Shown: one piece after another, positions 5,742 through 30,550 of the stretch | How positions within the stretch are numbered: the first letter of the stretch is position 1 | Layout of the letters: each line of letters begins with the position of its first letter | Source of the DNA: Candidatus Woesearchaeota archaeon | GTDB lineage: Archaea; Nanobdellota; Nanobdellia; Woesearchaeales; GW2011-AR9 | Reading direction: 5' to 3' | DNA: 64,000 nucleotides | Assembly (NCBI GenBank): GCA_016185725.1 | Contig: JACPNA010000042.1 | Location: 1,681 to 65,680 of the forward strand | The notes under the pieces: generated by a model | Databases searched by the model: none | What the model saw: only the letters and a program-made list of their open reading frames with translations | Told to the model about the DNA's origin: nothing | Position numbers and translations under genes: made by a program

Positions 5742-5803
5742 AGATTAAAATACTTTAATGACGGATAAAGTGATAAATTCATATTAAAAAAAAGTAAAAA
5801 AAC

Positions 5804-8255: not shown

Positions 8256-9698
8256 ATGGAAAATTACGATGTGATACTAGTAAACCCAGATTTTTTGAGT
8301 ATTTACAATGCCAAATTTCCTCCTTTTGCAGCTATGTTTTTATCATATGCTCTTAAAAAAGCTGGTTACTCCATTAGAATATTTGATACACAATTCGAAA
8401 AAGAAGATAATCTCTATGAATGTATCAAAAATAATAAACCACTATGGGTAGGATTCTCAGTAATGACTGGTCCAACCATAGCTCGAACTTTAAAAATATG
8501 CCAGAAAATTAGAGAGATCTCTTCAGATATAAAAATTGTCTGGGGAGGTCCGCATCCAACTTTACTTCCTAAAGATACTCTTAAACATAAACTTATTGAT
8601 ATTGTAGTCATATCAGAAGGAGAAAAAACCGTTGTGGAATTAACAAAAACACTAAAGAATAATGAAAACTTGGATTTAGTCAATGGAATTGGATATAAAA
8701 AAAATGAAGAGATTATAATTACTAAACCCAGAGAATTTACAACTGATTGGGATAATGAAGTGGGATTAGATTGGGATAATGTCAAAATAAATAATTACAT
8801 TGATTCTCAAGGCAAATATAAAAAAATTTCTTTAATTACTAGTCGTGGCTGTCCTTTTAGATGTAAATTTTGTTGGAATATAATGGCAAATAATAGACGC
8901 TGGAGAGGCTGGTCTGCTGAAAAAGTTATTGAAGAGATACAGCGTTTGCTTCCTTATGGGGTGAATTATATAACTTTAGAAGATGATAATTTTGGAGTTG
9001 ATTTAAATAGAGCTAAAAAAATTTTAAAATTTATGAAAACACGAGATATTTTATGGTCTTTTGAGGGTGTTCGCGTAGGAAAACACATCACCATAGAATT
9101 AATCCAATTTTTCAAAGAAAACAATTGCCATCATCTTTCTTTCGGAGCAGAATGTGGAAACCAGAAAATGCTTGATTACATTGCCAAAGATATTACTGTT
9201 GAACAACTAATTGAATCTGCTAGATTAACCGGACAATATAAATTAGGTGTTAGATATAGTTGGATTATTGGTTTTCCAAAAGAAACGCACGCTGATAGAA
9301 TGGATCTTATATCATTAATCAATAAAATTACTGAATTAAATCCTAATTGCGCTCATTATATTGGTATTTATGGACCTCACCCTGGTTCAGAAATATTTCA
9401 AGAAACTATTGAAGCGGGTTGGATTCCTCCTAAAAATGTAGAAGGATGGTCATTATTTAGAGAAGAAGTAGATTTACCTTACTGCAAAAATATGTGGTAT
9501 TTGAGGAGCATAGCTTTAGCTTGTTTCTTTAAATTTGCAGTAGACTCTTCTTTAAGAGCACACTCAAAAACAAAAATTATTTATAGAATTCCTTTTAAAA
9601 TTTTGAAGTTTGTATCTAACATAAGATGGAAATATAGATTATTCCACTTTCCAATTGAATACAAAATACTAACATTAATAAAAAATAAAATTACTTGA
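8256..9698 (+). CDS. B12-binding domain radical SAM protein (class B rSAM)
   Basis: An N-terminal B12-binding-like domain is followed by the CPFRCKFC CxxxCxxC cluster motif. The protein is 480 aa. Confidence 0.7.
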   Translation: MENYDVILVNPDFLSIYNAKFPPFAAMFLSYALKKAGYSIRIFDTQFEKEDNLYECIKNNKPLWVGFSVMTGPTIARTLKICQKIREISSDIKIVWGGPHPTLLPKDTLKHKLIDIVVISEGEKTVVELTKTLKNNENLDLVNGIGYKKNEEIIITKPREFTTDWDNEVGLDWDNVKINNYIDSQGKYKKISLITSRGCPFRCKFCWNIMANNRRWRGWSAEKVIEEIQRLLPYGVNYITLEDDNFGVDLNRAKKILKFMKTRDILWSFEGVRVGKHITIELIQFFKENNCHHLSFGAECGNQKMLDYIAKDITVEQLIESARLTGQYKLGVRYSWIIGFPKETHADRMDLISLINKITELNPNCAHYIGIYGPHPGSEIFQETIEAGWIPPKNVEGWSLFREEVDLPYCKNMWYLRSIALACFFKFAVDSSLRAHSKTKIIYRIPFKILKFVSNIRWKYRLFHFPIEYKILTLIKNKIT

Positions 9699-10450: not shown

Positions 10451-11425
10451 CTATTGTATTAAAGATCGACTCTTTTTAATTTTTAAAAAACCATATGCCC
10501 CTAATAAGAAAGCGTACATTAATCCAAAAACGTGAAAAGCTAATCCCGATACTATTGATTGTTCCTTTGCAAAACCAAAAAACAATAAAACTAGGACCCA
10601 AGTCCCTTCCGTTGTGCCAAACCCCATAAATCCCTGTATTGGTAATAAATAAGTCAACATAGTTAAGCCAGAACCCAATACAAAAACTGAAATAGGAATT
10701 TGAATAAAATAGCTAACAACTATAAAATCAGCCAACAAAAGAAATGACCACAACAATAAAGAAATGATAAACATTTGAAAAATTAATTTTTTAGATTTAA
10801 TCATATCAAAATGTTGTAGTGTTTCAATAATTTTTTCCATTATTTTTCTAAGAAATAATAAAGATTGTTTTCCCCGTATTCTTTTCATGAAATTTAGAAT
10901 AGAATTGCGTTTAAAAATTAAAAGATAGATAATTAATAGCAGTAGAAAGCAAAAAAATAAAGCAAAATAATTAAAAAAGATATTACTTTTAGGAGTAAAT
11001 AACAATGAAATAGAAAAGAATAATAAGATTATTACCATGTCAAAAATTCTCAAAATTCCTAATGTGAACAAGCCTTTAGTCCCCTCTATACCTTCATTTT
11101 TAAGCAAAAAGATATGCGAAAATTCTCCCATTCTCCACGGCAAAACATTATTTAAAAAATTATGGATACAAGTAATATCAAATATTTTATAATAAGATAT
11201 ACTCTTCTCAAATAAAATGTAGGTGCGCAATGATCTTAAAATATTTCCTATTAAATATAAAATAAAGGATATTAATATAACATGCCATTTTAATTGAGAA
11301 AACACTGAAAATAAAAAATCCACAGAAATGCTTTTAAATAGTACCCACAAAATAGCTAAAGTAATAAATAAAGTTGCCAAAAAAACAAAAACTTTATTTG
11401 ATCTATTTTTTTTTACTTCCGCCAT
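10451..11425 (-). CDS. Polytopic membrane protein, PF03706/UPF0104 flippase-like (LPG-synthase TM-domain family)
   Basis: It has about 8 TM helices and the motif LPWRMGEFS, which matches the P-G-x-x-G-x-x-E core of PF03706. Confidence 0.5.
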   Translation of the reverse strand: MAEVKKNRSNKVFVFLATLFITLAILWVLFKSISVDFLFSVFSQLKWHVILISFILYLIGNILRSLRTYILFEKSISYYKIFDITCIHNFLNNVLPWRMGEFSHIFLLKNEGIEGTKGLFTLGILRIFDMVIILLFFSISLLFTPKSNIFFNYFALFFCFLLLLIIYLLIFKRNSILNFMKRIRGKQSLLFLRKIMEKIIETLQHFDMIKSKKLIFQMFIISLLLWSFLLLADFIVVSYFIQIPISVFVLGSGLTMLTYLLPIQGFMGFGTTEGTWVLVLLFFGFAKEQSIVSGLAFHVFGLMYAFLLGAYGFLKIKKSRSLIQ

Positions 11426-14284: not shown

Positions 14285-16273
14285 CTAAACCACCTTCACA
14301 ATAACTCCCCCATTATTCTGATAAACAACCACAAATTTATCTTTACTATTAAAATAATCTTGAAACTTTCCGATAATAATTTCTTGGGTTTTATTGCCGA
14401 AATCGTAATATCTAAAACTCATTGAATCTAAAATAAAATATTCATATTTTTCTTTTTTCAAGAAATTATAAACATCCAAGGAACTTTTATTGATAAATCC
14501 TTCTCTCAATTTGATATTCTGTTCACACCAATCACAATTATCCATATCTAAACCAATCACTTCATTATTCTGACTTCCAGAAAAAGACATGACTTTAGTA
14601 TTTTTAGGTAAACTATTCAACCATAAATACAATTGCACTTCCTCCATAGACGTCCAACTTGCTCCCGGTGGCCACATTGCCGTATTCACCGCATATTTTT
14701 GTTCCCCAGAAGTATACCATAATCCAATTAACAGAACCATAACCAACACTACCCTCACAACTTTAATTTTATCGGGAACTAATTTAAGTATAACAAAAAA
14801 TCCTTCCGCACAAATCAACGCTGTCGGAATTGCTAATAATAACCATGTCCTAAACCCAAATAACCCGGGAATATTAAATGTAGCGCTATTCACAATTAGA
14901 AAAGCAATCAATAACCACCCTAAAATTACCACGGGATAATAACTTTTATTTTTATAATATTTTTTTGCTAACATTACCACCATAAAGACCGAAATGATTA
15001 TTAAAATAGTGATAATTATACCCCAACCAATAGGATTATTAATCATATTACCTGATTTTGCTACAAAAAAATCATCAAAAGTATACGCTTTTGTCGCACT
15101 GCCTAAATTAGGCTTGAAATAATTCTGAACGAAACTAACTATCTTATACACTAAACTGGTATCCCGCGAAACTAGCCCCGGATCCAAATCGCTAATCCTC
15201 CCTGCTCTCTCTGTAAAAAAAGAACCAATCTTCATTGCCCACCACGATAACGATAAGGCTATTCCAATCAACAAAGAATAAAAATGTTCTAACGGCCATT
15301 TGCGTTCAAAAATCCATTTAATCACAACATAAACACCAAAAAACAGCAAAAATTTAATTGCATGCTCTGGATGAACTAAAAATATGCCAGCAATTGCTAA
15401 AGCAGAAACAAACATCCACTTCCTTGCCTCCTTTTTACATTCTTCCATTTCCTCATTGCCGCCACCGCTGCTGCCCTCACTATTAATACATTCCAAACAA
15501 TAAAACGCCACACAAACCAAAAATGGCAGCAAACTATGCGCCCAAATAAAATGACTCAGATAAGAAGGAATCACCGTTAAAATAAATGTAGCCAATAATG
15601 CCTTCTTTCGACTCTTCATAAATTTCGTTGCAAAAAAATAAAATACAATAATACTTAACGAAATAATTAACGCATTAAAAAATTTAAGCGTCCAATTCAC
15701 CGAATCATTAGTCTGATACAAAACCGCCATCAGAATGTCATACGCTGGAGGATAAGGATCAATATATCGAAACAAATCCTTACCCGTGTAAGGCTCATAT
15801 GCTGTTTTTTCCAGAGCAATATATCTCACACTTCTCGCATGCTCCCACGGATCATCATCTTCTAAATAAGGATAAGAAAAAGCTCCCGTGTGATACATAT
15901 AAAACGTAAACGCAAATAAAACAAAAACTCCTAATAAATAAAGATCTGCTTTATCTAATTTTATTTTGTTTATTTTGCTTATTTCATTTAAATCATCTTC
16001 AAAATTAAATTTATTTTTAATAAAATACCGGCCCAAACAATAAACAGGAACAGCTAAACTAACAACTAAAAAAATTCTCCAATCTAAGGGAATATGTGCT
16101 AAATTCAAAACTGTTCCCAATACCACAAAAACAGGCAATCCTATGCCCATTCTCATCAAATTTCTTTCCCAAAAATTACCCCACTTCTTTATAAATAATG
16201 TAGCTGTAAACCCCAATCCCCATAAATAAACAAAAAATAAAATTATTGTTGTAATATTCATATTTAACCCCAT
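14285..16273 (-). CDS. GT-C-fold-like polytopic membrane glycosyltransferase candidate (OST/ArnT/PMT-like architecture)
   Basis: The 662-aa protein has a many-TM N-terminal region with an acidic first-loop motif (YPYLEDDDPWEH, DxD-like) and a C-terminal soluble domain. No WWDYG motif is present. Confidence 0.45.
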   Translation of the reverse strand: MGLNMNITTIILFFVYLWGLGFTATLFIKKWGNFWERNLMRMGIGLPVFVVLGTVLNLAHIPLDWRIFLVVSLAVPVYCLGRYFIKNKFNFEDDLNEISKINKIKLDKADLYLLGVFVLFAFTFYMYHTGAFSYPYLEDDDPWEHARSVRYIALEKTAYEPYTGKDLFRYIDPYPPAYDILMAVLYQTNDSVNWTLKFFNALIISLSIIVFYFFATKFMKSRKKALLATFILTVIPSYLSHFIWAHSLLPFLVCVAFYCLECINSEGSSGGGNEEMEECKKEARKWMFVSALAIAGIFLVHPEHAIKFLLFFGVYVVIKWIFERKWPLEHFYSLLIGIALSLSWWAMKIGSFFTERAGRISDLDPGLVSRDTSLVYKIVSFVQNYFKPNLGSATKAYTFDDFFVAKSGNMINNPIGWGIIITILIIISVFMVVMLAKKYYKNKSYYPVVILGWLLIAFLIVNSATFNIPGLFGFRTWLLLAIPTALICAEGFFVILKLVPDKIKVVRVVLVMVLLIGLWYTSGEQKYAVNTAMWPPGASWTSMEEVQLYLWLNSLPKNTKVMSFSGSQNNEVIGLDMDNCDWCEQNIKLREGFINKSSLDVYNFLKKEKYEYFILDSMSFRYYDFGNKTQEIIIGKFQDYFNSKDKFVVVYQNNGGVIVKVV

Positions 16274-17049: not shown

Positions 17050-18795
17050 CTACTCTTTATAGTAAATAGTCCAATAGGTCAAATTCTGGATAGAAAAACC
17101 ATTTTCTAAAAAATTATGCCCCCATCTATTATAAAACTCTGATTCATGATATCGATACACAACAACATAAATCGGAATATTTCTAACTCCTTTCAATTGT
17201 TCTGCCAAATTTTTAGCATTATAATCAACTGCTTCTAATGAATCTCTTCTATATTCAAACAAAGGAGCCTGTTGTTTAAAAACAAACGGATTATATCCTT
17301 GTTTTGCTCGCATAAATGTAAACATAACATAATCAGGATTATAATACCAAGACTTAGTTGGATTGGGAGTTTCCGAACTTCCTGTTCCTGGAGCATGCAA
17401 TAATATTTTAAAATCCTGCTTAGATTTCAAATAATCCAATAACTGATCATTCTTCTCTCCAGAATCTTGATATGTTTTATTATACATCCAGATATCAACT
17501 AAAAACAAAGAAACGACAAAAGTTAGTATCACCAAAAAATAAATTATTTTCTGGCGTTTCTTAAATGTTAAATCAACCAGAGAATATAATCCATATGCAG
17601 AAGCAATTATGACCAAAGGAAAAGCATGAACAATATACCTGATTTGATGATTAGACATTCTCAATGAAAAATATAAATAAATAGCTAAAAAAAACAAGGA
17701 GATAATAACCATCTGTTTTCTTGTTTCTTTATCCTCAATTTTACCTTTAATAAGCAAATAAATAACATAAAAGAAGAACAACGTAAAAAATAAAGTTCTT
17801 TGCAGATAACCATGAATCATATAGGTAAAATTAGAAAATAATGTGCCCCGCCCCATCCAAGGATAGTTTAAAGATAAATAATTTAGATCATGAGTGCAAT
17901 CTCTTATCTCTTGAGAAGAAGTTGTTATAATCCTCTCTAAAAAATGATTATCAAATAAATTATATTTTAGCCATTGATAACTAATTAGCAAAAACACCAA
18001 ATTTTGCAAAAAAGCAACAAATATAATTTGCAACGCCCCTGAATCACCCAATATTTTCCAATTTAGTTTATATCCCGCTTCTTTTTTATCCTCCCAATAT
18101 TTCGCCAAAATCAAATAAATAAAATAAATCACAAAAAAGATATCTATAAATAAAGCCCCCGAATATTGAATCAACGTAGCCAAAGTCAAAAACAATCCCC
18201 CTATTAAGATATTCCAACTAAAATTAACATAAAAATCCTTAAAAAACTTAATTCTATAATTTTTCTTGACCGCGCGTACAAATGTAAAATAATACCAAAA
18301 TAAAGTCATCATCGCAATTGGTATGGGTGCTAAAGCTTGAATAGCACTATACATATAAAATAAAGTTGACATTATTAAAATAATAGAAGAACTTAATGCT
18401 ACTATCTCTTTCTTTGTTGCGCGTAAAGCAATTATATATACTAAAATAGCGCTGATTATGGAACAAATCAACGCCATAAATCGTATCGCAAAAAAAGTTG
18501 GCCCAAAAATAAAATAAAAAAGAGCTCTGATAAGACCATCAATCGGCGGATCAATATTCGCAAACCAGCCCGCATTATATCCCATTTGTTGATATTTATT
18601 GACAAATTCATCAAAAGGAACATAACTATCAAATAGTATCGTTTTAATATAATCATGCCAAATCATTCCTCCTGCCGCATGTCTTGATTCGTCATAAGAT
18701 AATTGAATGGTATCAAAAGTTGCAGAAATCCAAAAACTATAAACTATTAAAAACAAAACCAGCACAATGACATAAGGAGATACCTTCAATTTCAT
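17050..18795 (-). CDS. GT-C-fold membrane glycosyltransferase candidate (ArnT/PMT, GT39/83-like)
   Basis: The 581-aa protein has about 12 TM helices and an N-terminal loop ...SYDESRHAAGGMIW typical of the ArnT/PMT family. It lies immediately downstream of a GT2 gene. Confidence 0.45.
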   Translation of the reverse strand: MKLKVSPYVIVLVLFLIVYSFWISATFDTIQLSYDESRHAAGGMIWHDYIKTILFDSYVPFDEFVNKYQQMGYNAGWFANIDPPIDGLIRALFYFIFGPTFFAIRFMALICSIISAILVYIIALRATKKEIVALSSSIILIMSTLFYMYSAIQALAPIPIAMMTLFWYYFTFVRAVKKNYRIKFFKDFYVNFSWNILIGGLFLTLATLIQYSGALFIDIFFVIYFIYLILAKYWEDKKEAGYKLNWKILGDSGALQIIFVAFLQNLVFLLISYQWLKYNLFDNHFLERIITTSSQEIRDCTHDLNYLSLNYPWMGRGTLFSNFTYMIHGYLQRTLFFTLFFFYVIYLLIKGKIEDKETRKQMVIISLFFLAIYLYFSLRMSNHQIRYIVHAFPLVIIASAYGLYSLVDLTFKKRQKIIYFLVILTFVVSLFLVDIWMYNKTYQDSGEKNDQLLDYLKSKQDFKILLHAPGTGSSETPNPTKSWYYNPDYVMFTFMRAKQGYNPFVFKQQAPLFEYRRDSLEAVDYNAKNLAEQLKGVRNIPIYVVVYRYHESEFYNRWGHNFLENGFSIQNLTYWTIYYKE

Positions 18796-18881: not shown

Positions 18882-19796
18882 ATGAAAGTCACAAAAATTC
18901 AGGAAAGTAACCCCCTTTTAAACATAATAATAAGTATTCCTGCTTACAACGAAGAAGCAACCATTGGTCAGGTTATCCAAGATATCAAAAACACCTTAAA
19001 ATTAACCGATTACAATTACAAAATTCTTGTTCTAAACGATGGCTCTACTGATAACACTGCTGAAATATCAAAAAAAAATGGTGCTATTGTGATATCAAAC
19101 AAACGAAACCTTGGCTTAGCCGAAACCTTTAAACGTGAAATGCAAGAATTCCTTACATTAAAAGCGGACATAATTGTTCATACCGATGCTGATGGACAGT
19201 ACCCTTCCCATTATATCCCTGAACTAATTAAGAAAATAGAAGAAGGCAATGACCTTGTTCTAGGTAGCCGTTTTGGCAAAGGTAAATATGAAGGTTCAAT
19301 ATTAAAAAAACTAGGCAATATAACTTTTGCCAAAGTATTTTCCAATCTACTAAAAACTAACATAACTGATACAACTACCGGCTTCCGTGCTTTCACTAAA
19401 GAAGTAGCTCAATTACCCTTAATTAACAATTTTACCTATACCCAAGAACAATTAATTCGTGCAGGGAAGGCAAAAATGCACATTGCTGAAATTCCTATTA
19501 CTACCCAAGAAACTCCTCGTCCCAGTCGTCTTTTCAAAAACCCCTTTGATTACGCTATTAAAGCCTGGATTAATATTTTTAGAATTTATCGTGACTTTGA
19601 ACCTCTCAAATTCTTTGGTAGAATTGGTGCATTATTTTTAGGAGTGGGATTTTTATTAGGAATTTGGATACTTTATTTATGGTTAACAACAGGTTCGGTT
19701 GGCGCTTTGCCAAGAGTAATTTTAAGCATGCTTTTAATAACAACCGGAATACAGATAATGCTCTTTGGCTTTTTAGCAGATATGAATAAAAAATGA
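18882..19796 (+). CDS. GT2 glycosyltransferase with C-terminal TM anchor (polyprenyl-phosphate sugar synthase-like)
   Basis: It contains IISIPAYNEEATI...LVLNDGSTDNT and TDADGQ, and has two C-terminal TM helices. Confidence 0.8.
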   Translation: MKVTKIQESNPLLNIIISIPAYNEEATIGQVIQDIKNTLKLTDYNYKILVLNDGSTDNTAEISKKNGAIVISNKRNLGLAETFKREMQEFLTLKADIIVHTDADGQYPSHYIPELIKKIEEGNDLVLGSRFGKGKYEGSILKKLGNITFAKVFSNLLKTNITDTTTGFRAFTKEVAQLPLINNFTYTQEQLIRAGKAKMHIAEIPITTQETPRPSRLFKNPFDYAIKAWINIFRIYRDFEPLKFFGRIGALFLGVGFLLGIWILYLWLTTGSVGALPRVILSMLLITTGIQIMLFGFLADMNKK

Positions 19797-20752
19797 ATTA
19801 TTCGAAAATAAAAAATTTATCGAAAAATATCCTAAAAATATCTGTTACTATTTTGATTATAATTTTTCTGATTTATAAAATAGGATTGAACAACCTAATT
19901 TCCACTTTATCTTCAGCCAACATATTAATTCTTTTAGTGATAATTCCGATAAAATTAATCTCTTTATTATTTACAACTTTAAACATAAAAATATTACTGG
20001 ATGTAATTAAAAAAAAAATAACTTTTTACAAATTATTTATTTATTCCAATCTTGCTTGGTCTATAGGCTTATTCCTTCCTGGTCGTCTAGGTGAATTTTC
20101 TCTTAGTCATTTTTTACAAGAAGAAGATTATACCTTAGGAGAAAGCGCTGCTGTTTCTTTATTAGATAAAATAAGTACATTTATTGTATTAGGCATATTA
20201 TCAATATTAGCCATACTCAAATATTTTGATACAATTTATGCCCTACAATTTTCTTTAATTCTTTTAACAATCTTAATCATCAGTTTATTTTTATTATCCA
20301 ACGAAAAAATAAGAAATATAATAAAGCAAAAAATCTTAGGAAAATATTCCTTATTATTTTATGGCTTTTATACTTCTTTTAAAGATATTCTAATAAATCA
20401 TAAAAAAATCTTTATATTAAACCTTCTTACCACATTAATCAAATGGAGTTTTAGTTTTCTTACTATTAAGATAATATTTATATCTTTAGGAACACCAACA
20501 CACTTTCTTGATATATCTTATATTACTTCCCTTTCCATGATTATTGCCTTAATTCCTATTAGCATAGGAGGGATTGGATTAAGAGAATCAACGGCAGTTT
20601 ATCTCTTTAATATTGTTTATATAAAACCAGAAATTACTTTAGCAGCACATTTAATTAATATTGCATTGAATTATATTATTGCTTTCATATTTATAACATT
20701 TAACTGGGACCTAATCAAAATCAACAAAGAAAAATATTCCAGCAAAAAATGA
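19793..20752 (+). CDS. PF03706/UPF0104 flippase-like membrane protein
   Basis: It overlaps the upstream GT2 stop by 4 nt and carries the motif LPGRLGEFS. It has 8 TM helices and is a paralog of the 10451-11425 protein. Confidence 0.5.
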   Translation: MNYSKIKNLSKNILKISVTILIIIFLIYKIGLNNLISTLSSANILILLVIIPIKLISLLFTTLNIKILLDVIKKKITFYKLFIYSNLAWSIGLFLPGRLGEFSLSHFLQEEDYTLGESAAVSLLDKISTFIVLGILSILAILKYFDTIYALQFSLILLTILIISLFLLSNEKIRNIIKQKILGKYSLLFYGFYTSFKDILINHKKIFILNLLTTLIKWSFSFLTIKIIFISLGTPTHFLDISYITSLSMIIALIPISIGGIGLRESTAVYLFNIVYIKPEITLAAHLINIALNYIIAFIFITFNWDLIKINKEKYSSKK

Positions 20753-20809: not shown

Positions 20810-22945
20810 TTAATTTTTAACATTGAAGTTTCCATTCAAAATCTCCTCCACTCTAAAACAAATTTCCATTGATTCATATGCCTTATTCGCATCAATCAAT
20901 TCTGATTTTTCTCCGCGTAATTTTTTCAACAATTCTACAAGTTCAGCATAGTGCCCTTTATCTTGTTTTATACTGGATTTTTTACCATTAATAAACAACT
21001 GTTCAAAATCATCTAATACTGCAACATTACCTCCGCCAAATATCTCAATTCTTTCTTTAGATAAAGTATCATTAGCATAATCAGTATACACTAAAGTAGC
21101 AACAGATCCATCCCCATATTTAATCGTGACTGCCGCATTATTACTATCTATAACTCTTCCGTCCGAATTGATCTTATAAGCATTAATCTCTGAAAAACGA
21201 GTTCCAATTATATAATTAAAAAAACTAAACATATGGCACATCTCTCCTATAATCCTTCCCCCGCCTTCCTCTGGATCATTAACCCAATCCTCTCTTCCCG
21301 TCGGCTTGGTATTAACGCGATAATTAATTATTAGCGGATAATCACGTGTTTCAAAAAATGATTTAACCTGCTGAGTCAGAGGAGCATAATTTCTATTGAA
21401 ACCAACACTATACACCAATCCCTTCCCCTTCAACGTATTTAAAATGCTCCTGCATTCCTCTCGAGTAATCCCCATTGGTTTCTCTACAAATACCTGCTTC
21501 CCTTTTTTTAATGCTTCAATAGCAATTTTAGCATGTAAATTATGCCTTGTTGAAATAACCACTAAATGTATATCTTTATCATTAAGTACTTCTGTATAAT
21601 CTGCAGAACAATACTCCGCTCCATTAAGTAACGCTAAATTTTTAGCAGAACCTGGGTTTTTTGTTACAATGGCTTTGAGATTAAAATCATCTATCTTTTT
21701 AACATTAACTAAATGCGTGCCTTTTGCAAAATTTCCCGCACCAATTAGACCAACATTTATCTTTCCCACTATCTTTTTATTTGATGTAACTAAGCGCAAC
21801 GGCTCTTCCTTATTAAGTTCCTGGGGATAACTCAAAAGTACTATTAACGGAACAGGATTAGCTTTACTCAATGTTAAATATGCTTCTTCTGCCTCATCAA
21901 TTGAAAATTCTTTCTCTATTAACTCTTCAACAGAAATTTTCCGTTCCGCTAACAACCGTAAAAACTCTTGCATATTTCTATTTTCTGTCCATCGAACATA
22001 TCCCAAAGGATAATCCTGGCCTTTTTCCTCATAGTCTTTATCATATCTCCCCGGTCCGTATGAAGTAGAAATTAAAAAATCTAACTCTTTTTTATACATA
22101 ACCTCCCTATTGATAGTTATCGGAACCTTGCCCAACAATACAACTCTTCCTTTTTTTCTGCACATTTCCATAGAATTATTTATTATGTCCTTATTATCTG
22201 TGGCTGCACTGATGATTACACCATCTACACCTATCCCTTTCGTAAAATGAATTGCATTTTTAACAAAATCTGTTGTAAAAAATCTATGAACCTTAGCTTT
22301 TTTAGCTCTTTTTTCATTGATATCAATACCAATAACCTGACAGCCGATAGCACTGAGGATCTGACAAACTATTTGTCCTAACAATCCTAAACCATACACC
22401 ACAATAATCTCTCCGAATGAAGGATTTAATCTTCTCACACTTTGAATTGCTATTGAACCTATAGTTGTTAACGAAGCTTCTTTTAAAGAAACATTCTTAG
22501 GAATTTTTACAACTAAATTTTTAGGCACACAAACAATTTCCGCATGGCTCGCATAATTTTGTCCTCCGCAAGCAACATCATCATTAACAGAAAATTCCCT
22601 GACATTCTTGCCAACTTCCATCACCTTGCCAGAACAACTATATCCCAACCGCCACCAATTATTTAACATTTGTTTAACATAATTATACGTTTTGAAATAC
22701 CCCTCTTTTTTAGCCTTAATTATAACACTCTTAACCAACTCTTTCTTTTCTAAAGCAGTTTGATATAGCGGCTGTTTTAATTTTTTAACCGTATTCAGTT
22801 CCGTTCCGCTGCTTATTACAGAATACAAAACCTTAACTTTAACTTCATTATCTCCGCAGACAGGAACTGTAACTTCTTCAACCTGTACTCTCCCTTTCTT
22901 AGCAAAAACTTGTTTCATAGTAATACTACTCCATTTTAGCAACAA
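20810..22945 (-). CDS. Bi-domain oxidoreductase. The N-terminal part is a zinc-type MDR alcohol dehydrogenase and the C-terminal part is a Gfo/Idh/MocA NAD(P) oxidoreductase.
   Basis: The N-terminal domain has GroES-like and Rossmann regions (VVYGLGLLGQIV). The C-terminal domain begins KINVGLIGAGNFAKGTHL (Gfo/Idh/MocA). The whole protein is 711 aa. Confidence 0.7.
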   Translation of the reverse strand: MLLKWSSITMKQVFAKKGRVQVEEVTVPVCGDNEVKVKVLYSVISSGTELNTVKKLKQPLYQTALEKKELVKSVIIKAKKEGYFKTYNYVKQMLNNWWRLGYSCSGKVMEVGKNVREFSVNDDVACGGQNYASHAEIVCVPKNLVVKIPKNVSLKEASLTTIGSIAIQSVRRLNPSFGEIIVVYGLGLLGQIVCQILSAIGCQVIGIDINEKRAKKAKVHRFFTTDFVKNAIHFTKGIGVDGVIISAATDNKDIINNSMEMCRKKGRVVLLGKVPITINREVMYKKELDFLISTSYGPGRYDKDYEEKGQDYPLGYVRWTENRNMQEFLRLLAERKISVEELIEKEFSIDEAEEAYLTLSKANPVPLIVLLSYPQELNKEEPLRLVTSNKKIVGKINVGLIGAGNFAKGTHLVNVKKIDDFNLKAIVTKNPGSAKNLALLNGAEYCSADYTEVLNDKDIHLVVISTRHNLHAKIAIEALKKGKQVFVEKPMGITREECRSILNTLKGKGLVYSVGFNRNYAPLTQQVKSFFETRDYPLIINYRVNTKPTGREDWVNDPEEGGGRIIGEMCHMFSFFNYIIGTRFSEINAYKINSDGRVIDSNNAAVTIKYGDGSVATLVYTDYANDTLSKERIEIFGGGNVAVLDDFEQLFINGKKSSIKQDKGHYAELVELLKKLRGEKSELIDANKAYESMEICFRVEEILNGNFNVKN

Positions 22946-22977
22946 TATTTAAATATTTTGAAGTTCAAATCCCTTTA

Positions 22978-24870
22978 ATGACAAATAAGCTAAAGTTTTA
23001 TAGTAACAGACTTAAATGTATGAGTTTGCCGGAACTTCTCTACCGAATTAAATGGAAAACCAAACTAGAAACATATTATAAAATTTTAAGCTTAAAACAA
23101 CAAAAAATAAACCTTCCATTTGAACAATTACAGCAAGATTTTAACTCAACAAAATTTTGGTTTGAATATTCCCAAGAAAAAAACAAAGAAAAAATATTAC
23201 AAGAATATTATCCTAATCTTACCCCAAAAAGCACCATCTCAAAAGCTAATGCCTACCTGCAACACACCATTCCCATCTATGAACTTAGAAAAAACCTTGG
23301 GAAAGAAATAAATTGGAACAAAGATTACAAAACAGAAAAGATTTGGACACGCCAATTCATTGGTAAAATCCATCATGCAGATTCTAATTATGGTTATGTT
23401 CGCTACATTTGGGAGCTTAATCGCTGTAATCACCTCGTAACTTTAGCCCAAGCTTATTTTCTCACTGAAAACGAAAAATACGCTCAAGAGATCATTAGCC
23501 AAATAGGATCCTGGATTGGACAAAACCCTTACTTGAAAACTATCAACTGGTTTTCCGGATTAGAATTAGGAACCCGTATCATCAACTGGACCATTGCTCT
23601 AAAACTCATCAAAAAATCATCGTATTTGACACAAGAAAGATTAAATAACGCCTTATCATCAATTTATCTCCAAACAGATTTTACTTATCATAACCTATCT
23701 AAATACTCTTCTGCTAACAACCATTTGGTAGGAGAATTAGCAAGTATCAAATTAACAACTGCTGTCTTCCCCCACTTCCCTCACGCTAAAAAATGGAACA
23801 AAATAAGTACAAAAAAAATAGACCGTGAAATACTTCAACAAATTTATGAAGACGGTGTAGGTAAAGAGCAATCAGTAAATTACTTATTATTTATCCTAGA
23901 CCTCTATTTTTGGAGTTCCTTGGCTATTGACCAAGAAATAAAACCAGAAATAAAAACAAGAATAATAAAAAGTAGAGAATTCTTATCCGCCCTAGAAATA
24001 GGAACATTTCTACCATCCATTGGCGATACTGATGAAGCCTATGTATCCGGCATTCATTCTGAAAAAGAAAGAATTAATTTCTTTAACCATTGGACTGCCA
24101 AAATCAATCATAACCCACAAATCAAAAATACCCCTAGCAAACTATTCCCCTTAGGCGGCTATTTCATCTCAAAAAACACTGCACAAAACACCACTTTAAT
24201 CTTCGACTGTGGTCCTCTTGGCTACCTTTCTACTTCCGGACATGGTCACTGTGATGCCCTTAGTTTTATCCTCACCATAAACAACAAACCATTTTTTACT
24301 GATCCTGGAACGTATGTCTATCATGAAGGAAAAGAATGGCGTAATTACTTCAAATCCACTGAAGCACACAATACTATCAAAATTGATCAAAGAGATCAAT
24401 CGCAAATAACTGGTCCATTCACCTACGGAAAAAAAGCCCAAACAAAAATAATCAATTCCAAAATCAATCCCATAATTGACGAAATTACTGCTTCACATAA
24501 CGGCTATAAAAACAGAGGAGTAATTCATCAACGTACAATAACCCATGACAAAAAAGCACAAGAAATTACTATTTTAGACATATTACAAACAAAAAACAAT
24601 AAACCGCATGAATTATCTCTCTTCTTCAATTTATCTCCAACAATAAAAATACAAGAATCATCAAATAATCACTTCATTTTATCCCAAGAAAAAACAAAAA
24701 TAAAACTAACTTTAGATCCCTCATTAAATACTACGCAACACCATGGCGAAACAAACCCTATTTTTGGTTGGAATTCACCTCAATTCGGCATAAAAATACC
24801 CTCCTTGTGCTTAGAAAGTACAACTAAAATAACCACAACTACGACCTTTAAGACAACAATCACTTATTAA
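22978..24870 (+). CDS. Heparinase II/III-like family protein (polysaccharide lyase-like fold; function in glycan biosynthesis unknown)
   Basis: It contains NWFSGLELGTRIINW (Hepar_II_III_N) and a GHGHCDALSF motif, and has 630 aa. Confidence 0.65.
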   Translation: MTNKLKFYSNRLKCMSLPELLYRIKWKTKLETYYKILSLKQQKINLPFEQLQQDFNSTKFWFEYSQEKNKEKILQEYYPNLTPKSTISKANAYLQHTIPIYELRKNLGKEINWNKDYKTEKIWTRQFIGKIHHADSNYGYVRYIWELNRCNHLVTLAQAYFLTENEKYAQEIISQIGSWIGQNPYLKTINWFSGLELGTRIINWTIALKLIKKSSYLTQERLNNALSSIYLQTDFTYHNLSKYSSANNHLVGELASIKLTTAVFPHFPHAKKWNKISTKKIDREILQQIYEDGVGKEQSVNYLLFILDLYFWSSLAIDQEIKPEIKTRIIKSREFLSALEIGTFLPSIGDTDEAYVSGIHSEKERINFFNHWTAKINHNPQIKNTPSKLFPLGGYFISKNTAQNTTLIFDCGPLGYLSTSGHGHCDALSFILTINNKPFFTDPGTYVYHEGKEWRNYFKSTEAHNTIKIDQRDQSQITGPFTYGKKAQTKIINSKINPIIDEITASHNGYKNRGVIHQRTITHDKKAQEITILDILQTKNNKPHELSLFFNLSPTIKIQESSNNHFILSQEKTKIKLTLDPSLNTTQHHGETNPIFGWNSPQFGIKIPSLCLESTTKITTTTTFKTTITY

Positions 24871-25909
24871 CATTTATTTCCAACAAAACAGAATCCACGA
24901 TAATATTGGCCGTATTAACCAATTGTGTATCAATTATTCCCTTTATTTTTAATAACCATTTCTTTTTCTCTTTTTCATTCAATAATTCATCTATTTTCTT
25001 AAAAATATCTTTCTCTTCTTCTATCTTATAAATTCCTCCCCAACTCAAAAAAGGATTGTTCGCATACATTTCTCTACCACCGGTATAAATGCATGGTACT
25101 CCTAATAACGCTGATTCTCTCGCCATACTATCCCCCGAAGACAAGCAAAACAAAGCATAATACATTATCGAATAAACATCATCTAATGGTTCTTCTAATA
25201 TTGTACAATAAGGAGCATAAAATTCTCTTCTAGACTTATCTTCTAAAGAAAGCATTACTTTTATTCCTTTTTCCTGTAAATATTTTATAGAACTAACCAA
25301 CCCTTCTTGTTTGAGATTAGTATAATTCATACTAATCCCTGCTACCTCTCTTACAAAAACATAATTATTCTGTTCTAATCTTAAATCTTCAATTATTTTC
25401 TTTTTAGGTTTGTAAAAATCAGGGTGTAAATAAGCCAGCTCTTTAAATCCCCCATAAGCAACTATTTTCTTTGACCGTTTTGGAATTACCTTTGGAATTA
25501 TTAATTTATTAGCAAAAAAATAAGATAAACTAAAATTCAATTTAAATTCATAATCATCATAAAATAAAATTGATTTTATACCTAACAATCGAGAACAGAA
25601 TGCTAACGTAAAATCACCCACCCCTAACGTTAAACTAGCCTTGTTTTTTTTTAAATATTGTAATAGTCCTTTAATCCGCTTCATCACCATAAAAATTTTA
25701 CCAAAAGTATTCGGACTATATACTCCTATTTTTGTTAACGTATACGCGGGAAATTCTTTTTGTAATACTTTTTCTATTTTTCCCCTATCTAAATAAACAA
25801 TTTCTATCTCAAACCCTCTTTTATTAAGTTCTCTAATAGCCTTCTTAAAAAAATTCAAATGCGCTAAATGTATCACACTAAAAATAATTTTATTTGCTAT
25901 TGTCTTCAC
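24860..25909 (-). CDS. DUF354-family protein (GT-B/UDP-GlcNAc 2-epimerase-like fold)
   Basis: The 349-aa protein has a tandem Rossmann-like architecture, a glycine-rich C-terminal half (GGREMYANNPFLSWGG) and a sequence character typical of archaeal DUF354. Confidence 0.4.
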   Translation of the reverse strand: MKTIANKIIFSVIHLAHLNFFKKAIRELNKRGFEIEIVYLDRGKIEKVLQKEFPAYTLTKIGVYSPNTFGKIFMVMKRIKGLLQYLKKNKASLTLGVGDFTLAFCSRLLGIKSILFYDDYEFKLNFSLSYFFANKLIIPKVIPKRSKKIVAYGGFKELAYLHPDFYKPKKKIIEDLRLEQNNYVFVREVAGISMNYTNLKQEGLVSSIKYLQEKGIKVMLSLEDKSRREFYAPYCTILEEPLDDVYSIMYYALFCLSSGDSMARESALLGVPCIYTGGREMYANNPFLSWGGIYKIEEEKDIFKKIDELLNEKEKKKWLLKIKGIIDTQLVNTANIIVDSVLLEINVNK

Positions 25910-25937
25910 CTTAATCTAATTGTAATCACGCTCATCA

Positions 25938-27236
25938 TCAAACAAGTAATTTATAATTTTTAAATTCTGATCCTTTTTTCTTCAATAAGCCGTTTAAATC
26001 AATAATCTTCCCCTCATACCATTTTAATTTATCAATGCCTAAATAATCTACTGACCCTATAATTATAGTGTCAAATTTATTCAAATCTGGTTCTTTTACC
26101 GCCAAAAGTCCCATTTGTGGCAGTGTACTTTCAATAAATGTTTTATTAGCTCCTAATAATAAATCTTGTTCAAAAAGATTATCTACAAATTGTACATTGT
26201 AATTTAAATCCTTCAAATTACGCATTAACTTAACGTATGGGCTTTCTCTAAAATCATCTGTTCCATTCTTAAAAGTTATCCCTGAAATTAAAATATTTTG
26301 AGGATTTCCCTCTGTGATTTTTTGTAATGAATATCGTATCTGTTCATCATTCGATTTCATTACTGATTCTAAAACTAATGGAAATGTGCCCGAAGTTAAA
26401 GTTAAAATACCTTTCAAATCCTTCGGTAAACATGAACCCCCAAACGCAAATCCTGGTTTTAAATAATAAGGAGATAAATTTAAAGTCTTATCTTGACAAA
26501 AAATATTCATAATCTTATGGCTATCTATGCCTAATTCATTGCAAATTCTCCCTATCTCATTGGCAAACCCTACTTTTAACCCATGAAATGCATTATTAGT
26601 ATACTTAAATATCTCCGCTTCTTCTAACTTAACACGATGAATATTTTCTTTAACCCCTATCTTATCATAAAATTGTTCTAATAAATCGCCAGATTTTCCA
26701 TCAGCTTGACCAATTATTGTAAATGGTGGATGATAAAAATCTTGCACCGATGTGCCTTCCCTTAAAAATTCAGGGTTCATGCATCCCCCAAAACTTTTCC
26801 CCAGATATAATCCTGAATTTTTTTCAATGACTTTAATAAAATTTTGAGTTGTTCCAGGAGGAACAGTACTTCGAATAACAAATAGATGATAACCAGATTT
26901 ATTACGCAATTCTAAATTTAATTGTTCAGCTAAATTAGATATAGCATCTAAATTAATGCTGCCGTCTTCTCTTGATGGGGTTCCTACACATATAAATGAA
27001 ATATCAGTCTCATGTAAGACTTCCCCTAATGACTCTGTAACTTTAATCCTTTGTTTTCTTACTCCTTCTAATAATAACGCCGAAACTTCTTTCTCCTTAA
27101 AAGGAGAAACCCCTTTTTGAATAAGAGCATTCTTTTTTACATCAATATCATATCCCAAAACTGTAATACCTTCTTGTGCTAAGCAACCGGCAAGTGTTGC
27201 TCCTACATAACCAAAACCAAACACACTAACCTTCAT
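25938..27236 (-). CDS. Nucleotide-sugar 6-dehydrogenase (UDP-ManNAc/UDP-GlcNAc/UDP-Glc dehydrogenase family)
   Basis: It has an N-terminal NAD fold (VFGFGYVGATLAGCLA) and the catalytic Cys motif GGSCLPKD, and has 432 aa. Confidence 0.8.
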   Translation of the reverse strand: MKVSVFGFGYVGATLAGCLAQEGITVLGYDIDVKKNALIQKGVSPFKEKEVSALLLEGVRKQRIKVTESLGEVLHETDISFICVGTPSREDGSINLDAISNLAEQLNLELRNKSGYHLFVIRSTVPPGTTQNFIKVIEKNSGLYLGKSFGGCMNPEFLREGTSVQDFYHPPFTIIGQADGKSGDLLEQFYDKIGVKENIHRVKLEEAEIFKYTNNAFHGLKVGFANEIGRICNELGIDSHKIMNIFCQDKTLNLSPYYLKPGFAFGGSCLPKDLKGILTLTSGTFPLVLESVMKSNDEQIRYSLQKITEGNPQNILISGITFKNGTDDFRESPYVKLMRNLKDLNYNVQFVDNLFEQDLLLGANKTFIESTLPQMGLLAVKEPDLNKFDTIIIGSVDYLGIDKLKWYEGKIIDLNGLLKKKGSEFKNYKLLV

Positions 27237-28201
27237 TTGGGATTCCTCCTAAAATTATACACCAAATCATACCACTCCACCAACCTTCTCACACCTTCTT
27301 CAATACTGACTTTTGGTTCATAACCTAACATTTCCCTGCTTTTAGAAACATCGGCAAATGTCATCTCTACATCCCCTTGCTGTTTCTCCACATATCGAAT
27401 TTTCACCTTTTTATTTAAATTATTCTCAATTAATGAAACAAAATAATTTAGTTGTACTGGATTTGCACCACCTAAATTAAATAGTTCATATTTATGGCTC
27501 TTATCCAACGCAGCTACAACTCCCCCAACAATATCGCTAATATAAGTATAATCTCGTCTAGATGTTCCCTCTCCATAAATTTCTATCTCTTCTCCTCGAG
27601 CAATCTTATCCACAAATTTAAATGGAGCCATGTCCGGCCTTCCTCTTGGACCATATACCGTAAAGAATCGCAAACAAGAACAATTTAAATCATAAAGATG
27701 ATTATAATTATAACAAAATAACTCTCCCGCTTTCTTACAAGCAGCATAAGGAGATATCGGCTTATCAACCATATCTGTTTCTTTAAAACAACCCTCTGTC
27801 CTATTACCATAAACCGAAGAACTTGACGCAAACACGAAATTATCTATCCCATATTGTTTTGCCAATTCCAACAAATTAAGCGTCCCTCTAATATTAACCT
27901 CTTCGTATAAAAAAGGATTATTAATCGAAGGTCTAATCCCTGCTCGAGCCGCTAAATGTATTATCTTCCGTGGATTTTCTTTTTCAAAAACACTTCGCAT
28001 TAACGAAAAATCTAAAATATCCCCGCGACATAATCGACAATTTCTTTTTTCTAAACAATCAACAATATTCCGCTCCTTAATCCTTGGATTATAATAATCA
28101 TTAAAATTATCCACACAAACAACTTCATCTTCTCGCGCTAACAATTCTTCACAAACATGGCTTCCGATAAATCCTGCTCCGCCTGTAACTAATATTTTCA
28201 T
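27233..28201 (-). CDS. UDP-glucuronate 4-epimerase-like SDR (NAD-dependent epimerase)
   Basis: It contains [24 protein letters not shown] (YxxxK) and RFFTVYGPRGRPDMA, which is characteristic of UDP-GlcA 4-epimerases. Confidence 0.7.
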   Translation of the reverse strand: MKILVTGGAGFIGSHVCEELLAREDEVVCVDNFNDYYNPRIKERNIVDCLEKRNCRLCRGDILDFSLMRSVFEKENPRKIIHLAARAGIRPSINNPFLYEEVNIRGTLNLLELAKQYGIDNFVFASSSSVYGNRTEGCFKETDMVDKPISPYAACKKAGELFCYNYNHLYDLNCSCLRFFTVYGPRGRPDMAPFKFVDKIARGEEIEIYGEGTSRRDYTYISDIVGGVVAALDKSHKYELFNLGGANPVQLNYFVSLIENNLNKKVKIRYVEKQQGDVEMTFADVSKSREMLGYEPKVSIEEGVRRLVEWYDLVYNFRRNPK

Positions 28202-28204
28202 ATT

Positions 28205-29155
28205 CTACTCTCCGATCAACCCTCTAAAATATGTTATTGTCTTTTTCAAACCATCTTCTAAATCTATCCTTGGCTCCCAATCTAATTTCTTTTTAGCTAA
28301 ACTTACATCTGGTTTACGTTTACAAGGATCATCTTGGGGCAATTTTTGATAAACAATCCTGCTTTTACTCCCGGTATAAGCAATAACTTTCTCCGCTAAT
28401 TCCAACATTGTAAATTCATTAGGATTACCTAAATTAACCGGTCCATTGAAATTTTCACAATTCATCATTTTAATCATACCCGCAACTAAATCATCAACAT
28501 ACTGAAAACTTCTCGTTTGTTTTCCATCGCCATAAATTGTAATATCCTTGCCTTCTAACGCTTGCACAATAAAATTACTAACCACTCTGCCATCATTTTT
28601 TGCCATTCTCGGTCCATAAGTATTAAAAATTCTCACAATTCTCACCTCTACATAATTCTGGCGATTATAATCAAAAAATAACGTTTCCGCAACCCGTTTG
28701 CCTTCATCATAACATGCCCTTATCCCATCACAATTGACATTACCTTTATAACGTTCAGTTTGCGGATGTTCTAGCGGATCACCATACACTTCCGAAGTTG
28801 ACGCTTGTAATATTCTCGCTTTGTGTTTCTTAGCTAAACCTAACATATTTATTACCCCAATAGTATTAGCTTTAATCGTTCTAATAGCATTATACTGATA
28901 ATGTACTGGTGAAGCGGGACAAGCTAAATTATAAATTTCATCAACATGTTTATCCGCAAAATAAGGATTTATAATATCATGTTCAACAAATTCAAAATTA
29001 TTATCACTTAACAAATGTTTAATATTCTCCTCACTTCCCGTAAATAAATTATCTACACAAATAACATTTTCTCCATTAGACAACAATTTCTCGCATAAAT
29101 GGCTTCCAATAAATCCTGCTCCTCCTGTAACCAGAATATTTTTTTTCTTTATCAT
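28205..29155 (-). CDS. UDP-glucuronate decarboxylase (UDP-xylose synthase, UXS)
   Basis: It contains [19 protein letters not shown]...[18 protein letters not shown] and YDEGKRVAE (YxxxK), a typical UXS signature. It has 316 aa. Confidence 0.75.
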
Positions 29156-30480
29156 AGTTGTAAAGGATAATTCCTCCCCACACCATAATAATTAAATCCA
29201 TGATTATTTGCTGCTTTTGGCAACCATCTATTCCTTAAATCAAATATCAAATTACCTTGCATTAATTCTTTTAATCTATCAAAATCAGGTGCGTCAAACT
29301 CTTTCCATTCTGTTAATAATATCAACGCATCAGCATCTTTAACTGCAGCATATTTATCTTCTGCAAAATTGACTTTATCCCCGAAAATTTGCCTTGCTTT
29401 ACCATCTTGTGGATCATAAGCAACAACTCTAGCTCCTTCTTTAATCAATCTTTCAATTATTGGAACAGAAGCTGCATCTCTCATATCATCAGTATTAGGT
29501 TTAAATGTCAATCCCCAAACTGCTACGTTAACTTTATCGCCTGTCAACAATTTTTGCACTCTTTCCCCCATATAATTCTTATGTGCCTCATTTGAATGAT
29601 GAATTTGACTTAACAATAGGGGGTCATATCCATTTTCTCTAGCTCTTGCCGCTAACCCCTGTACATCCTTTGGAAAACAACTTCCCCCATATCCTGGACT
29701 AGGAAACATAAATTTATAACCTATTCTTTGATCTTCACACACCATTTTTCGTATAATATCCATGTCCGCTTCCGGAGTAATATCTGCAATCCTCGCAAAT
29801 TCATTGATCGTCGCTATTCTTGTTGCTAACGCCGTATTGGAAAACAATTTTGCTAATTCTGCATCTGCTGGTGAACCGCGAATAATTCTATCACTTTGAA
29901 TATTAAATGGATGATACAATTCTTGCATAACTCTAAACGCCTCATCAGAATGAGTGCCAATAATTATTCGATCTGGTTTAGCAAAATCACTAATCGCTGT
30001 TCCTTCCGCTAACGTTTCCGGATTAGAAACATATCCCCATCTAACCTTTGCTCCTTTTAACTTATTATTAAAAATATTATTTACCAATTCATAAGTTCCT
30101 TGTGGCACCGTACTCTTTCCTACAACAACTTTAAATCCCTCAGCATCTTTTAAAATATCGCCTATCTCTTCCGCTACACTTTTAACATATCTCAAATCAA
30201 ATGAACCATCTTCATCAGAAGGTGTTCCTACCGCAATAAATATCACTTTAGAATTTAACACCGGCTCTCTTAAATGATAAGTAAATTTCAAATTACCGTT
30301 AGCTAAATTGTTCTTAACTAACCTTTCTAATCCCGGCTCATAAATATGTACTTTACCATTATTTAAATCTTCAATTATTTCTTCATTATTATCTACACAA
30401 ACTACTTCATTGCCTCTATCTGCAAATAATGTGCCGGTAACTAAACCTACATAACCAGTTCCCACCATTGTGATTTTCAT
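29152..30480 (-). CDS. ugd: UDP-glucose 6-dehydrogenase (Ugd)
   Basis: It contains [16 protein letters not shown] and GGSCFPKD. The ORF track extends to 30540, but the ATG at 30480 is preceded by GGAGGT 8 nt upstream, so the shorter start is preferred. Confidence 0.8.
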
Positions 30481-30550
30481 AACAATAAACCTCCAAAATA
30501 AGCTTCTAACCCCATTAGTTAAAAGAGATATAATAAACACCTAAACTATC

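Follow-up and report, generated by a model that had tools for sequence, protein, structure and literature searches.

A DUF354 protein beside an AlgD-type dehydrogenase in a woesearchaeal glycan-biosynthesis island: a candidate GDP-mannuronate-dependent transferase

Introduction

What does a DUF354 protein do when its gene directly follows that of a nucleotide-sugar dehydrogenase? The question is raised by a 64,000-nucleotide stretch of a Candidatus Woesearchaeota archaeon genome (GenBank assembly GCA_016185725.1, contig JACPNA010000042.1, positions 1,681 to 65,680 of the forward strand; the whole stretch is called the window below). On its minus strand, a tightly packed run of genes reads UDP-glucose dehydrogenase, two short-chain dehydrogenases/reductases (SDRs), a second nucleotide-sugar dehydrogenase and then, after a gap of 28 bp, DUF354. 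A preliminary description of this DNA had correctly placed the last two genes next to each other on the same strand. It read them as a mirror of the wecB-wecC pairs that make UDP-N-acetylmannosaminuronic acid (UDP-ManNAcA), with DUF354 supplying a UDP-N-acetylglucosamine (UDP-GlcNAc) 2-epimerase, or a related glycosyltransferase step, to a dehydrogenase of the UDP-N-acetylmannosamine (UDP-ManNAc)/UDP-GlcNAc family. The two genes are:

24860..25909, minus strand: DUF354 protein of 349 amino acids counted from a GTG codon (338 amino acids in the database gene call), with a predicted GT-B (glycosyltransferase B) fold; putative GDP-mannuronate-dependent transferase
25938..27236, minus strand: AlgD-type GDP-mannose 6-dehydrogenase of 432 amino acids, predicted to produce GDP-mannuronic acid from its match to AlgD (1mfz) and its signature residues

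DUF354 is a sizeable family, comprising 2,978 clusters at 50% identity in an exhaustive hidden Markov model search of a library of 1.84 billion proteins. Literature searches found no functional study of DUF354, PF04007 or COG1817; one paper predicts DUF354 to be a glycosyltransferase and notes that its catalytic residues are poorly conserved. The answer we favour for the locus, with somewhat better than an even chance of being right, is that the dehydrogenase forms GDP-mannuronate and that DUF354 is a GT-B transferase adding mannuronate to a lipid-linked or growing glycan.

The dehydrogenase next to DUF354

All three UDPG_MGDP_dh domains are present in the dehydrogenase, whose score against TIGR03026 is 345 bits. 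Its best match among PDB sequences is Pseudomonas AlgD (1mfz; 339 bits, E 2e-100, residues 1-418 of 432), to which it is 41.6% identical over the full length, the C-terminal GANKxxIES stretch included. By comparison, the best UDP-glucose (UDP-Glc) dehydrogenase reaches 191 bits and the UDP-ManNAc(A) dehydrogenases 114 and 81 bits. The NCBIfam models place it closer to UDP-glucose than to UDP-ManNAc enzymes, those for UDP-ManNAc dehydrogenases, with cutoffs of 750 and 459, giving only 130 and 80 bits.

Three residues, Arg122, His217 and Ala263, are specific to GDP-mannose dehydrogenases, each being present in 43 of 45 family members. His217 touches the 2''-hydroxyl of mannose, at a position held by Arg in UDP-ManNAc enzymes and by Leu in UDP-Glc enzymes; outside the GDP-mannose dehydrogenases, Ala263 is replaced by Gly and Arg122 by Lys (PMC4794789). 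The window enzyme carries Arg122, His217(218) and Ala263 together with the equivalent of the catalytic Cys268, and has Pro and Asn at the less conserved Leu126 and Cys213 positions. The signature recurs among 36 DUF354-linked dehydrogenases from archaea and bacteria (Arg in 36, His in 35, Ala in 29, Cys in 36); the corresponding positions are Lys/Leu/Gly in Ugd controls and Glu/Arg/Gly in WecC controls. At AlgD positions 217/122/213, the window enzyme reads His/Arg/Asn against Arg/Glu/Glu in WecC-type controls.

Judged by its sequence, the dehydrogenase is thus an AlgD-type GDP-mannose 6-dehydrogenase and not, as had been supposed, a member of the UDP-ManNAc/UDP-GlcNAc type. Because of the similarity to AlgD and the signature residues, its predicted product is GDP-mannuronate rather than UDP-ManNAcA. 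With His instead of Arg at the position that reads the C2 substituent, it should not be a consumer of UDP-ManNAc, and since it is of the AlgD type, the analogy with wecB-wecC loses its basis.

DUF354 in the slot of a dedicated transferase

We sampled the gene context of DUF354 in 79 loci from GTDB species genomes. An AlgD-type dehydrogenase directly adjoins DUF354 on the same strand in 33 of them, with gaps of -11 to +42 bp; in 5 it lies one gene away, in 34 there is none within 10 kb, and in 7 the contig ends. This pairing is far beyond chance. It extends over archaea, Bacteroidota, Ignavibacteria, Planctomycetota and Chloroflexi and comes in both gene orders: the dehydrogenase precedes DUF354 in archaea and follows it in Chitinophagales, Cytophagales, Ignavibacteria, Planctomycetota and Chloroflexi.

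The DUF354 loci are polysaccharide clusters of the Wzx/Wzy or ABC type, with glycosyltransferases of families GT4 and GT2, Bac_transf, Wzc and Wzi, and they also hold AsnB-like amidotransferases, pairs of an ATP-grasp and a phosphatidylserine-decarboxylase-like protein, and FkbM methyltransferases. An initiating phosphoglycosyl transferase lies at -1 to +4 genes from DUF354 in 34 of the 79, and a WecA/MraY-type gene stands immediately upstream of it in a woesearchaeal locus (L173, with a 4-bp overlap) and in one from Methanosarcinales (L039). WecB homologues occur alongside DUF354 in only two of the loci (L029 and L088). In the archaeal relative L005, no other glycosyltransferase recognisable by Pfam lies within 21 kb.

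The reverse sample comprised 80 metagenomic loci seeded with an AlgD-type dehydrogenase, 65 of which hold a full-length copy. DUF354 adjoins the dehydrogenase in a single one of these (L112). A GT4 glycosyltransferase does so in 26 of the 65, immediately downstream in 22, and these GT4s form one tight orthologous group with a median best non-self score of 403 bits. The group is absent from the window, whose single GT4 reaches at most 51 bits, and from the DUF354 loci, where no score exceeds 117 bits. Since a GT4 holds this slot elsewhere and its group is absent here, DUF354 occupies the slot of a transferase, filling the place otherwise held by a dedicated one. Nor does the AlgD-type dehydrogenase need DUF354 for substrate supply: 64 of the 65 AlgD-type loci have no adjacent DUF354, which argues that DUF354 is not a substrate supplier.

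Two further arrangements deserve mention. In L112 (2301-5919), the AlgD-type dehydrogenase lies between two DUF354 paralogues, with two FemAB-like genes upstream and a bona fide WecB downstream. A second conserved pairing of DUF354, found in many bacterial loci, is with a FemAB-like acyltransferase (Acetyltransf_6, weak TIGR03019), which stands immediately upstream in 23 loci and is often followed by a GT4 and an NTP_transf_5 gene (FemAB-like loci: L008, L014-L017, L026-L029, L033, L034, L044-L050, L059, L061, L065-L068 and L074). Directly upstream of DUF354 in L013, L025, L042, L073 and L086 are an ATP-grasp ligase and a phosphatidylserine-decarboxylase-like protein, a combination that suggests a uronate amidated with serine and then decarboxylated to the ethanolamine amide.

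Fold and conserved residues of DUF354

The DUF354 open reading frame matches PF04007 at 71.5 bits (cutoff 22), residues 11-325 aligning with model positions 6-336 of 349, and all 45 aligned relatives match this family as well. An AlphaFold2 model, for which 45 homologues were used, has high confidence (predicted local distance difference test 94.4, predicted template modelling score 0.91). It bears out the UDP-GlcNAc 2-epimerase-like fold named in the preliminary description: the top 35 Foldseek matches are all 2-epimerases, and the modelled GT-B fold superimposes best on members of the Epimerase_2 family, with no better superposition on GT-B glycosyltransferases. Identity to that family is 12-15%. 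Pfam Epimerase_2 (PF02350) gives no match to the window DUF354 even at E <= 10, and a WecB profile gives E 0.93 on its open reading frame; the same profile, run with hmmsearch --max, finds nothing better than E 0.49 in the whole window, in keeping with the earlier statement that no WecB-type 2-epimerase is encoded there.

By sequence profile, MurG is the sole PDB match (E 0.008). An hhalign comparison gives E 2e-4 over 256 columns with E. coli MurG and E 5e-3 with a five-sequence WecB alignment, and overall WecB is matched no better by the DUF354 profiles than are MurG and GT4. Weak Pfam matches among the 45 relatives include Glyco_transf_4 (7), Glyco_transf_28 (6) and PS_pyruv_trans (2). We regard DUF354 as a GT-B family of its own.

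Two lines of argument were dropped. A specific kinship with GT4, seen in an hhalign match to a deep GT4 profile (E 3e-11), was set aside because WecB (6e-8) and MurG (1e-7) match the same profile. Equal conservation of both domains, taken as a sign of a small-molecule substrate, was discarded as well, as an orthologous transferase with a constant acceptor looks alike.

A core of residues (Asp11, His14, Asp118, Asp119, Glu157, Glu223, Glu265 and Arg279) is kept even in divergent DUF354 paralogues. In the model, His14 comes directly after N-domain strand 1 (residues 7-12) and the Asp-Asp directly after strand 5 (residues 112-116), positions that we take to be those of the GT1 catalytic His/Asp pair and of the His19 and HEQN elements of MurG. 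In an end-to-end profile alignment, Lys22, Glu265 and Arg279 fall on Lys15, Glu296 and Arg313 of WecB, which are nucleotide-binding positions. The catalytic carboxylates of WecB are Asp95, Glu117 and Glu131 of the E. coli enzyme; among 79 DUF354 proteins, the column of Asp95 holds Ser in 48, Gly in 23 and Asp in 6. WecB His213 (in the HRRE motif, after C-domain strand 1) aligns with R187-E188-V189 of DUF354, where there is no conserved His.

Dehydrogenase-linked DUF354 proteins are set apart from the rest by a single alignment column. This is position 117, just before the invariant Asp-Asp. Of 36 dehydrogenase-linked proteins, 32 have Tyr there (motif F-Y-D-D-x-E), and every one of the 22 FemAB-linked and 4 ATP-grasp-linked proteins has Asp or Glu. 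The switch is seen within near-identical IQF[Y/D]DDPER sequences and, independently, in an archaeal clade, and it ties the active-site loop of DUF354 to the product of the dehydrogenase. Replacing an acidic residue by Tyr where a carboxylate-bearing sugar binds would be chemically sensible.

DUF354 proteins are also basic, with a median isoelectric point (pI) of 8.9 and 82% of values above 8. The medians for comparison are 9.3 for GT4s of the same loci, 9.7 for MurG, 6.1 for WecB and 5.9 for the dehydrogenases, and in all 36 same-locus pairs DUF354 is the more basic of the two, by a median of 3 pH units. In this respect DUF354 is like membrane-associated transferases. A few long proteins, all encoded outside the window (P0342, P0335, P0312, P0328 and P0365), are fusions, in which the partner of DUF354 is the membrane domain LPG_synthase_TM, a methyltransferase with a polysaccharide pyruvyl transferase, or another DUF354-like module.

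A proposed role and its rivals

We propose that the dehydrogenase and DUF354 form a donor-plus-user module for mannuronic acid. The dehydrogenase would supply GDP-mannuronate, and DUF354, as a sugar-nucleotide enzyme of two Rossmann domains (GT-B), would act as a peripheral-membrane glycosyltransferase. The alignment suggests that its C-terminal domain may hold GDP-mannuronate, with Glu265 to the ribose and Arg279 and Arg187 to the diphosphate. Transfer of mannuronate to the lipid-linked or growing glycan would then proceed through the N-terminal loops that bear the invariant His14 and Asp118/Asp119, and Tyr117, which is Asp or Glu in DUF354 proteins not linked to a dehydrogenase, would accommodate the sugar carboxylate. 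A heparinase-fold protein and a bi-domain oxidoreductase, both encoded nearby, may subsequently modify the uronate-containing glycan. The proposal stands on homology, structure prediction and gene context; what goes beyond these we infer.

Several observations weigh against a mannuronosyl transferase. In half of the DUF354 loci, an AlgD-type dehydrogenase is missing within 10 kb, and the tree mixes dehydrogenase-linked, FemAB-linked and unlinked DUF354 proteins; for both reasons GDP-mannuronate may not always be the donor. The gene order phosphoglycosyl transferase, DUF354, GT2 suits an MnaA-like epimerase equally well, and Epimerase_2 is the commonest weak Pfam match among the relatives (9 of 45, sub-threshold, best E 0.0011). 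The E-x7-E motif of GT4 lacks its first Glu (Ser257, 94%), the second being present as Glu265, and the fusions, which are singletons at 90% identity and possibly gene-call artefacts, offer weak support. Finally, Asp118, Asp119 and Glu121 of DUF354 align in the Glu117/Glu131 region of WecB, so that elimination chemistry is possible, although this alignment spans the deletion of a 9-residue GLRxxD loop in DUF354 and is of low confidence (hhalign probability 5-14%).

This last correspondence, together with that of Lys22, Glu265 and Arg279 to WecB Lys15, Glu296 and Arg313, is shared ground with the rival that survives best, which we nevertheless regard as unlikely: that DUF354 is a sugar-nucleotide epimerase or eliminase, working by Epimerase_2-like C1-C2 elimination and re-addition of the nucleotide on a substrate other than UDP-GlcNAc, for instance GDP-mannuronate or a nucleoside diphosphate (NDP)-hexuronate. 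In its favour, almost all strands of the two domains are followed by invariant polar residues, a pattern known from enzymes that enclose a single small substrate, and the Tyr/Asp117 switch, tied as it is to the dehydrogenase, would suit any uronate-binding enzyme. However, the equivalent of Asp95 is not conserved, His213 has no equivalent and the GLRxxD loop is deleted. To our knowledge, no GT-B-fold 2-epimerase acts on a non-acetamido GDP-sugar, and the 2-epimer, GDP-glucuronate, would be redundant with the UDP-glucuronate provided by Ugd of the same operon. The high pI, the fusions to membrane domains and glycan modifiers, and the duplication of paralogues within clusters suit transferases better, and beside AlgD-type dehydrogenases it is a GT4 that DUF354 replaces, not an epimerase. 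A narrower version, in which DUF354 constitutes a new branch within the 2-epimerase superfamily and eliminates and re-adds the nucleotide of GDP-mannuronate or another NDP-hexuronate, seems to us a little less likely again; if true, it would make DUF354 the first GT-B-fold epimerase on a non-acetamido GDP-sugar.

We are more doubtful still that DUF354 is a GT-B-fold transferase of non-glycosyl groups or an NDP-sugar hydrolase acting on a uronate-rich glycan, whether TagF-like, a pyruvyl or acyl modifier, or PseG-like. The invariant His14 and the acidic residues could provide a general base, as His and acidic residues do in PseG or TagF, and the loci are rich in uronate-modifying genes (AsnB-like, ATP-grasp with phosphatidylserine-decarboxylase-like, FkbM and FemAB-like). 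One DUF354 fusion includes a pyruvyl transferase and a methyltransferase, and 2 of the 45 members have weak PS_pyruv_trans matches. Yet the tight coupling to a dehydrogenase that forms a sugar nucleotide and the displacement of GT4 indicate a glycosyl donor.

Very improbable is the pairing first suggested for this locus, a non-orthologous UDP-GlcNAc 2-epimerase whose neighbour oxidises UDP-ManNAc as an analogue of WecB-WecC: although the nearest fold is that of UDP-GlcNAc 2-epimerases, the window has no WecB, WecB homologues are rare in DUF354 loci (2 of 80) and a WecA-type gene directly precedes DUF354 in two archaeal loci, as in clusters for enterobacterial common antigen or teichoic acid, the partner dehydrogenase is AlgD-type with His217, Arg122 and low scores on UDP-ManNAc-dehydrogenase models, such dehydrogenases do without DUF354 (adjoining in 1 of 65 loci), neither the catalytic Asp95 nor His213 is conserved, and L029, L088 and L112 each encode a bona fide WecB as well as DUF354. 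Of the two roles offered in the preliminary description, the UDP-GlcNAc 2-epimerase is not supported, and the 'related glycosyltransferase step' is the one that we favour.

Neighbouring genes in the island

The window is an AT-rich archaeal contig that encodes the ribosomal proteins L19e, L32e and S4e, a Sec61-type plug, a 5S rRNA and an EMC3/DUF106-type insertase. A glycan-biosynthesis island occupies about 1-30.5 kb of it, and includes, around the dehydrogenase-DUF354 pair, the following genes:

20810..22945, minus strand: bi-domain oxidoreductase (ADH_zinc_N and GFO_IDH_MocA, by Pfam), recurring with the heparinase-like gene
22978..24870, plus strand: heparinase II/III-like protein (uronate lyase/C5-epimerase fold), convergent with DUF354; the tails of the two genes overlap by 11 bp
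27233..28201, minus strand: SDR nucleotide-sugar epimerase, GalE/TviC-like (PF01370 208 bits; GalE 186 and TviC 139 bits; none reaches its equivalog cutoff)
28205..29155, minus strand: SDR probably resembling UDP-glucuronate decarboxylase or the ArnA C-terminal domain (PF16363 and PF01370; ArnA 115 bits, PRK11908 111 bits)
29152..30540, minus strand: UDP-glucose 6-dehydrogenase, Ugd/TuaD-like (TIGR03026 402 bits; TuaD 400 bits), opening the sugar-nucleotide run

The first of the two SDRs (27233..28201) overlaps the start of the AlgD-type dehydrogenase by 4 bp, and the Ugd at 29152..30540 has Lys/Leu/Gly at the signature positions, as do UDP-Glc dehydrogenases. The start of DUF354 itself is ambiguous by about 11 codons: the GTG used here is the earliest possible, and the database call begins at Val12, which is another GTG. 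The earliest GTG (window 25905-25915) sits inside an AGGTGA string resembling a Shine-Dalgarno sequence, and the alignment with homologues starts at about residue 6.

Recurrent members of the AlgD-type loci are a heparinase II/III-like gene, an AsnB-like gene and a bi-domain oxidoreductase. The oxidoreductase adjoins the heparinase-like gene in L005, L090, L126, L142, L144 and L167. No N-terminal signal peptide is visible in the heparinase-like protein at 22978..24870. More widely, a cytoplasmic heparinase-like protein and a bi-domain oxidoreductase are found beside AlgD-type dehydrogenases in archaea and in soil and sediment bacteria, often with an AsnB-like protein and the dedicated GT4 (window 20810-24870; L005, L090, L118, L120, L126, L131, L142, L144, L146, L148, L156, L161 and L171). 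No relevant paper turned up in literature searches on a link between heparinase-like genes and GDP-mannose dehydrogenase. In archaeal relatives (L005, L009, L011 and L171), a B12-binding radical S-adenosylmethionine (SAM) enzyme, present in the window at 8256-9698, and SAM methyltransferases lie near the module of dehydrogenase, DUF354 and heparinase-like gene.

The same island carries two further candidate sugar-nucleotide pathways (701-2334 and 4026-6910): a SIS-domain isomerase together with a GHMP kinase suggests one for a nucleotide-heptose, and a fused dTDP-glucose 4,6-dehydratase/thymidylyltransferase with a DegT aminotransferase after it suggests one for a dTDP-amino-deoxyhexose. The island also encodes two flippase-like LPG_synthase_TM membrane proteins (10451-11425 and 19793-20752), one of which adjoins a GT2 gene (18882-19796), and two PMT-like proteins of the GT-C class (14285-16273 and 17050-18795), a set that points to translocation of lipid-linked sugars and glycosylation outside the membrane.

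Discussion

Among characterised systems, three invite comparison with DUF354 and its neighbours. The Epimerase_2 family (WecB/MnaA, NeuC, CapG, GNE and WbpI-type enzymes) resembles DUF354 in the correspondence of Glu265 to Glu296 and Arg279 to Arg313, in a Lys near Lys15 and in acidic residues after N-domain strand 5. It differs in being acidic where DUF354 is basic, and in having a WecC-type partner where the window has a GDP-mannose type. The inverting GT-B enzymes MurG (GT28) and GT1 share with DUF354 the invariant His after N-domain strand 1 and a basic pI, and the acidic residues of DUF354 after strand 5 stand where MurG has HEQN and GT1 what we take to be its catalytic Asp. The gene murG lies near mraY in the dcw cluster, and two archaeal DUF354 genes likewise directly follow one for an initiating phosphoglycosyl transferase. 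Unlike MurG, DUF354 has no glycine-rich G-loop before the His.

In alginate synthesis, a GDP-mannose dehydrogenase feeds a mannuronosyl transferase, with a lyase, AlgL, and an epimerase, AlgG. The window parallels the AlgD-Alg8 arrangement in that an AlgD orthologue lies beside a putative transferase and a protein of uronate lyase/epimerase fold. An alternative, less likely reading is that the AlgD-type dehydrogenase, DUF354 and the cytoplasmic lyase/epimerase-fold protein form an archaeal, Alg8-independent route to an alginate-like mannuronan. There are also differences: the window lacks the GT2 protein Alg8, Alg44 and AlgK/E/X/I/J/F, its transferase candidate is of the GT-B type, its lyase-fold protein has no signal peptide, and the bacterial DUF354 loci are heteropolysaccharide clusters of the Wzx/Wzy type. 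The window can also be compared with the metagenomic module of AlgD-type dehydrogenase, GT4, AsnB-like protein, heparinase-like protein and bi-domain oxidoreductase, with which it shares the dehydrogenase clade, the heparinase-like protein and the oxidoreductase. That module differs in having the GT4 group in the slot of DUF354, and no AsnB-like gene lies beside the window pair.

For DUF354, the nearest fold, that of a 2-epimerase, and the likeliest chemistry, that of a transferase, disagree, which makes it a cautionary case. A sizeable family without a characterised member in the literature searched is now given a proposed function that can be tested; Tyr/Asp117 is predicted to set specificity, and His14 and Asp118/119 are predicted to be catalytic. 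The pairing also indicates that GDP-mannuronate may be used well beyond alginate, in heteropolysaccharides of archaea and of Bacteroidota and Ignavibacteria.

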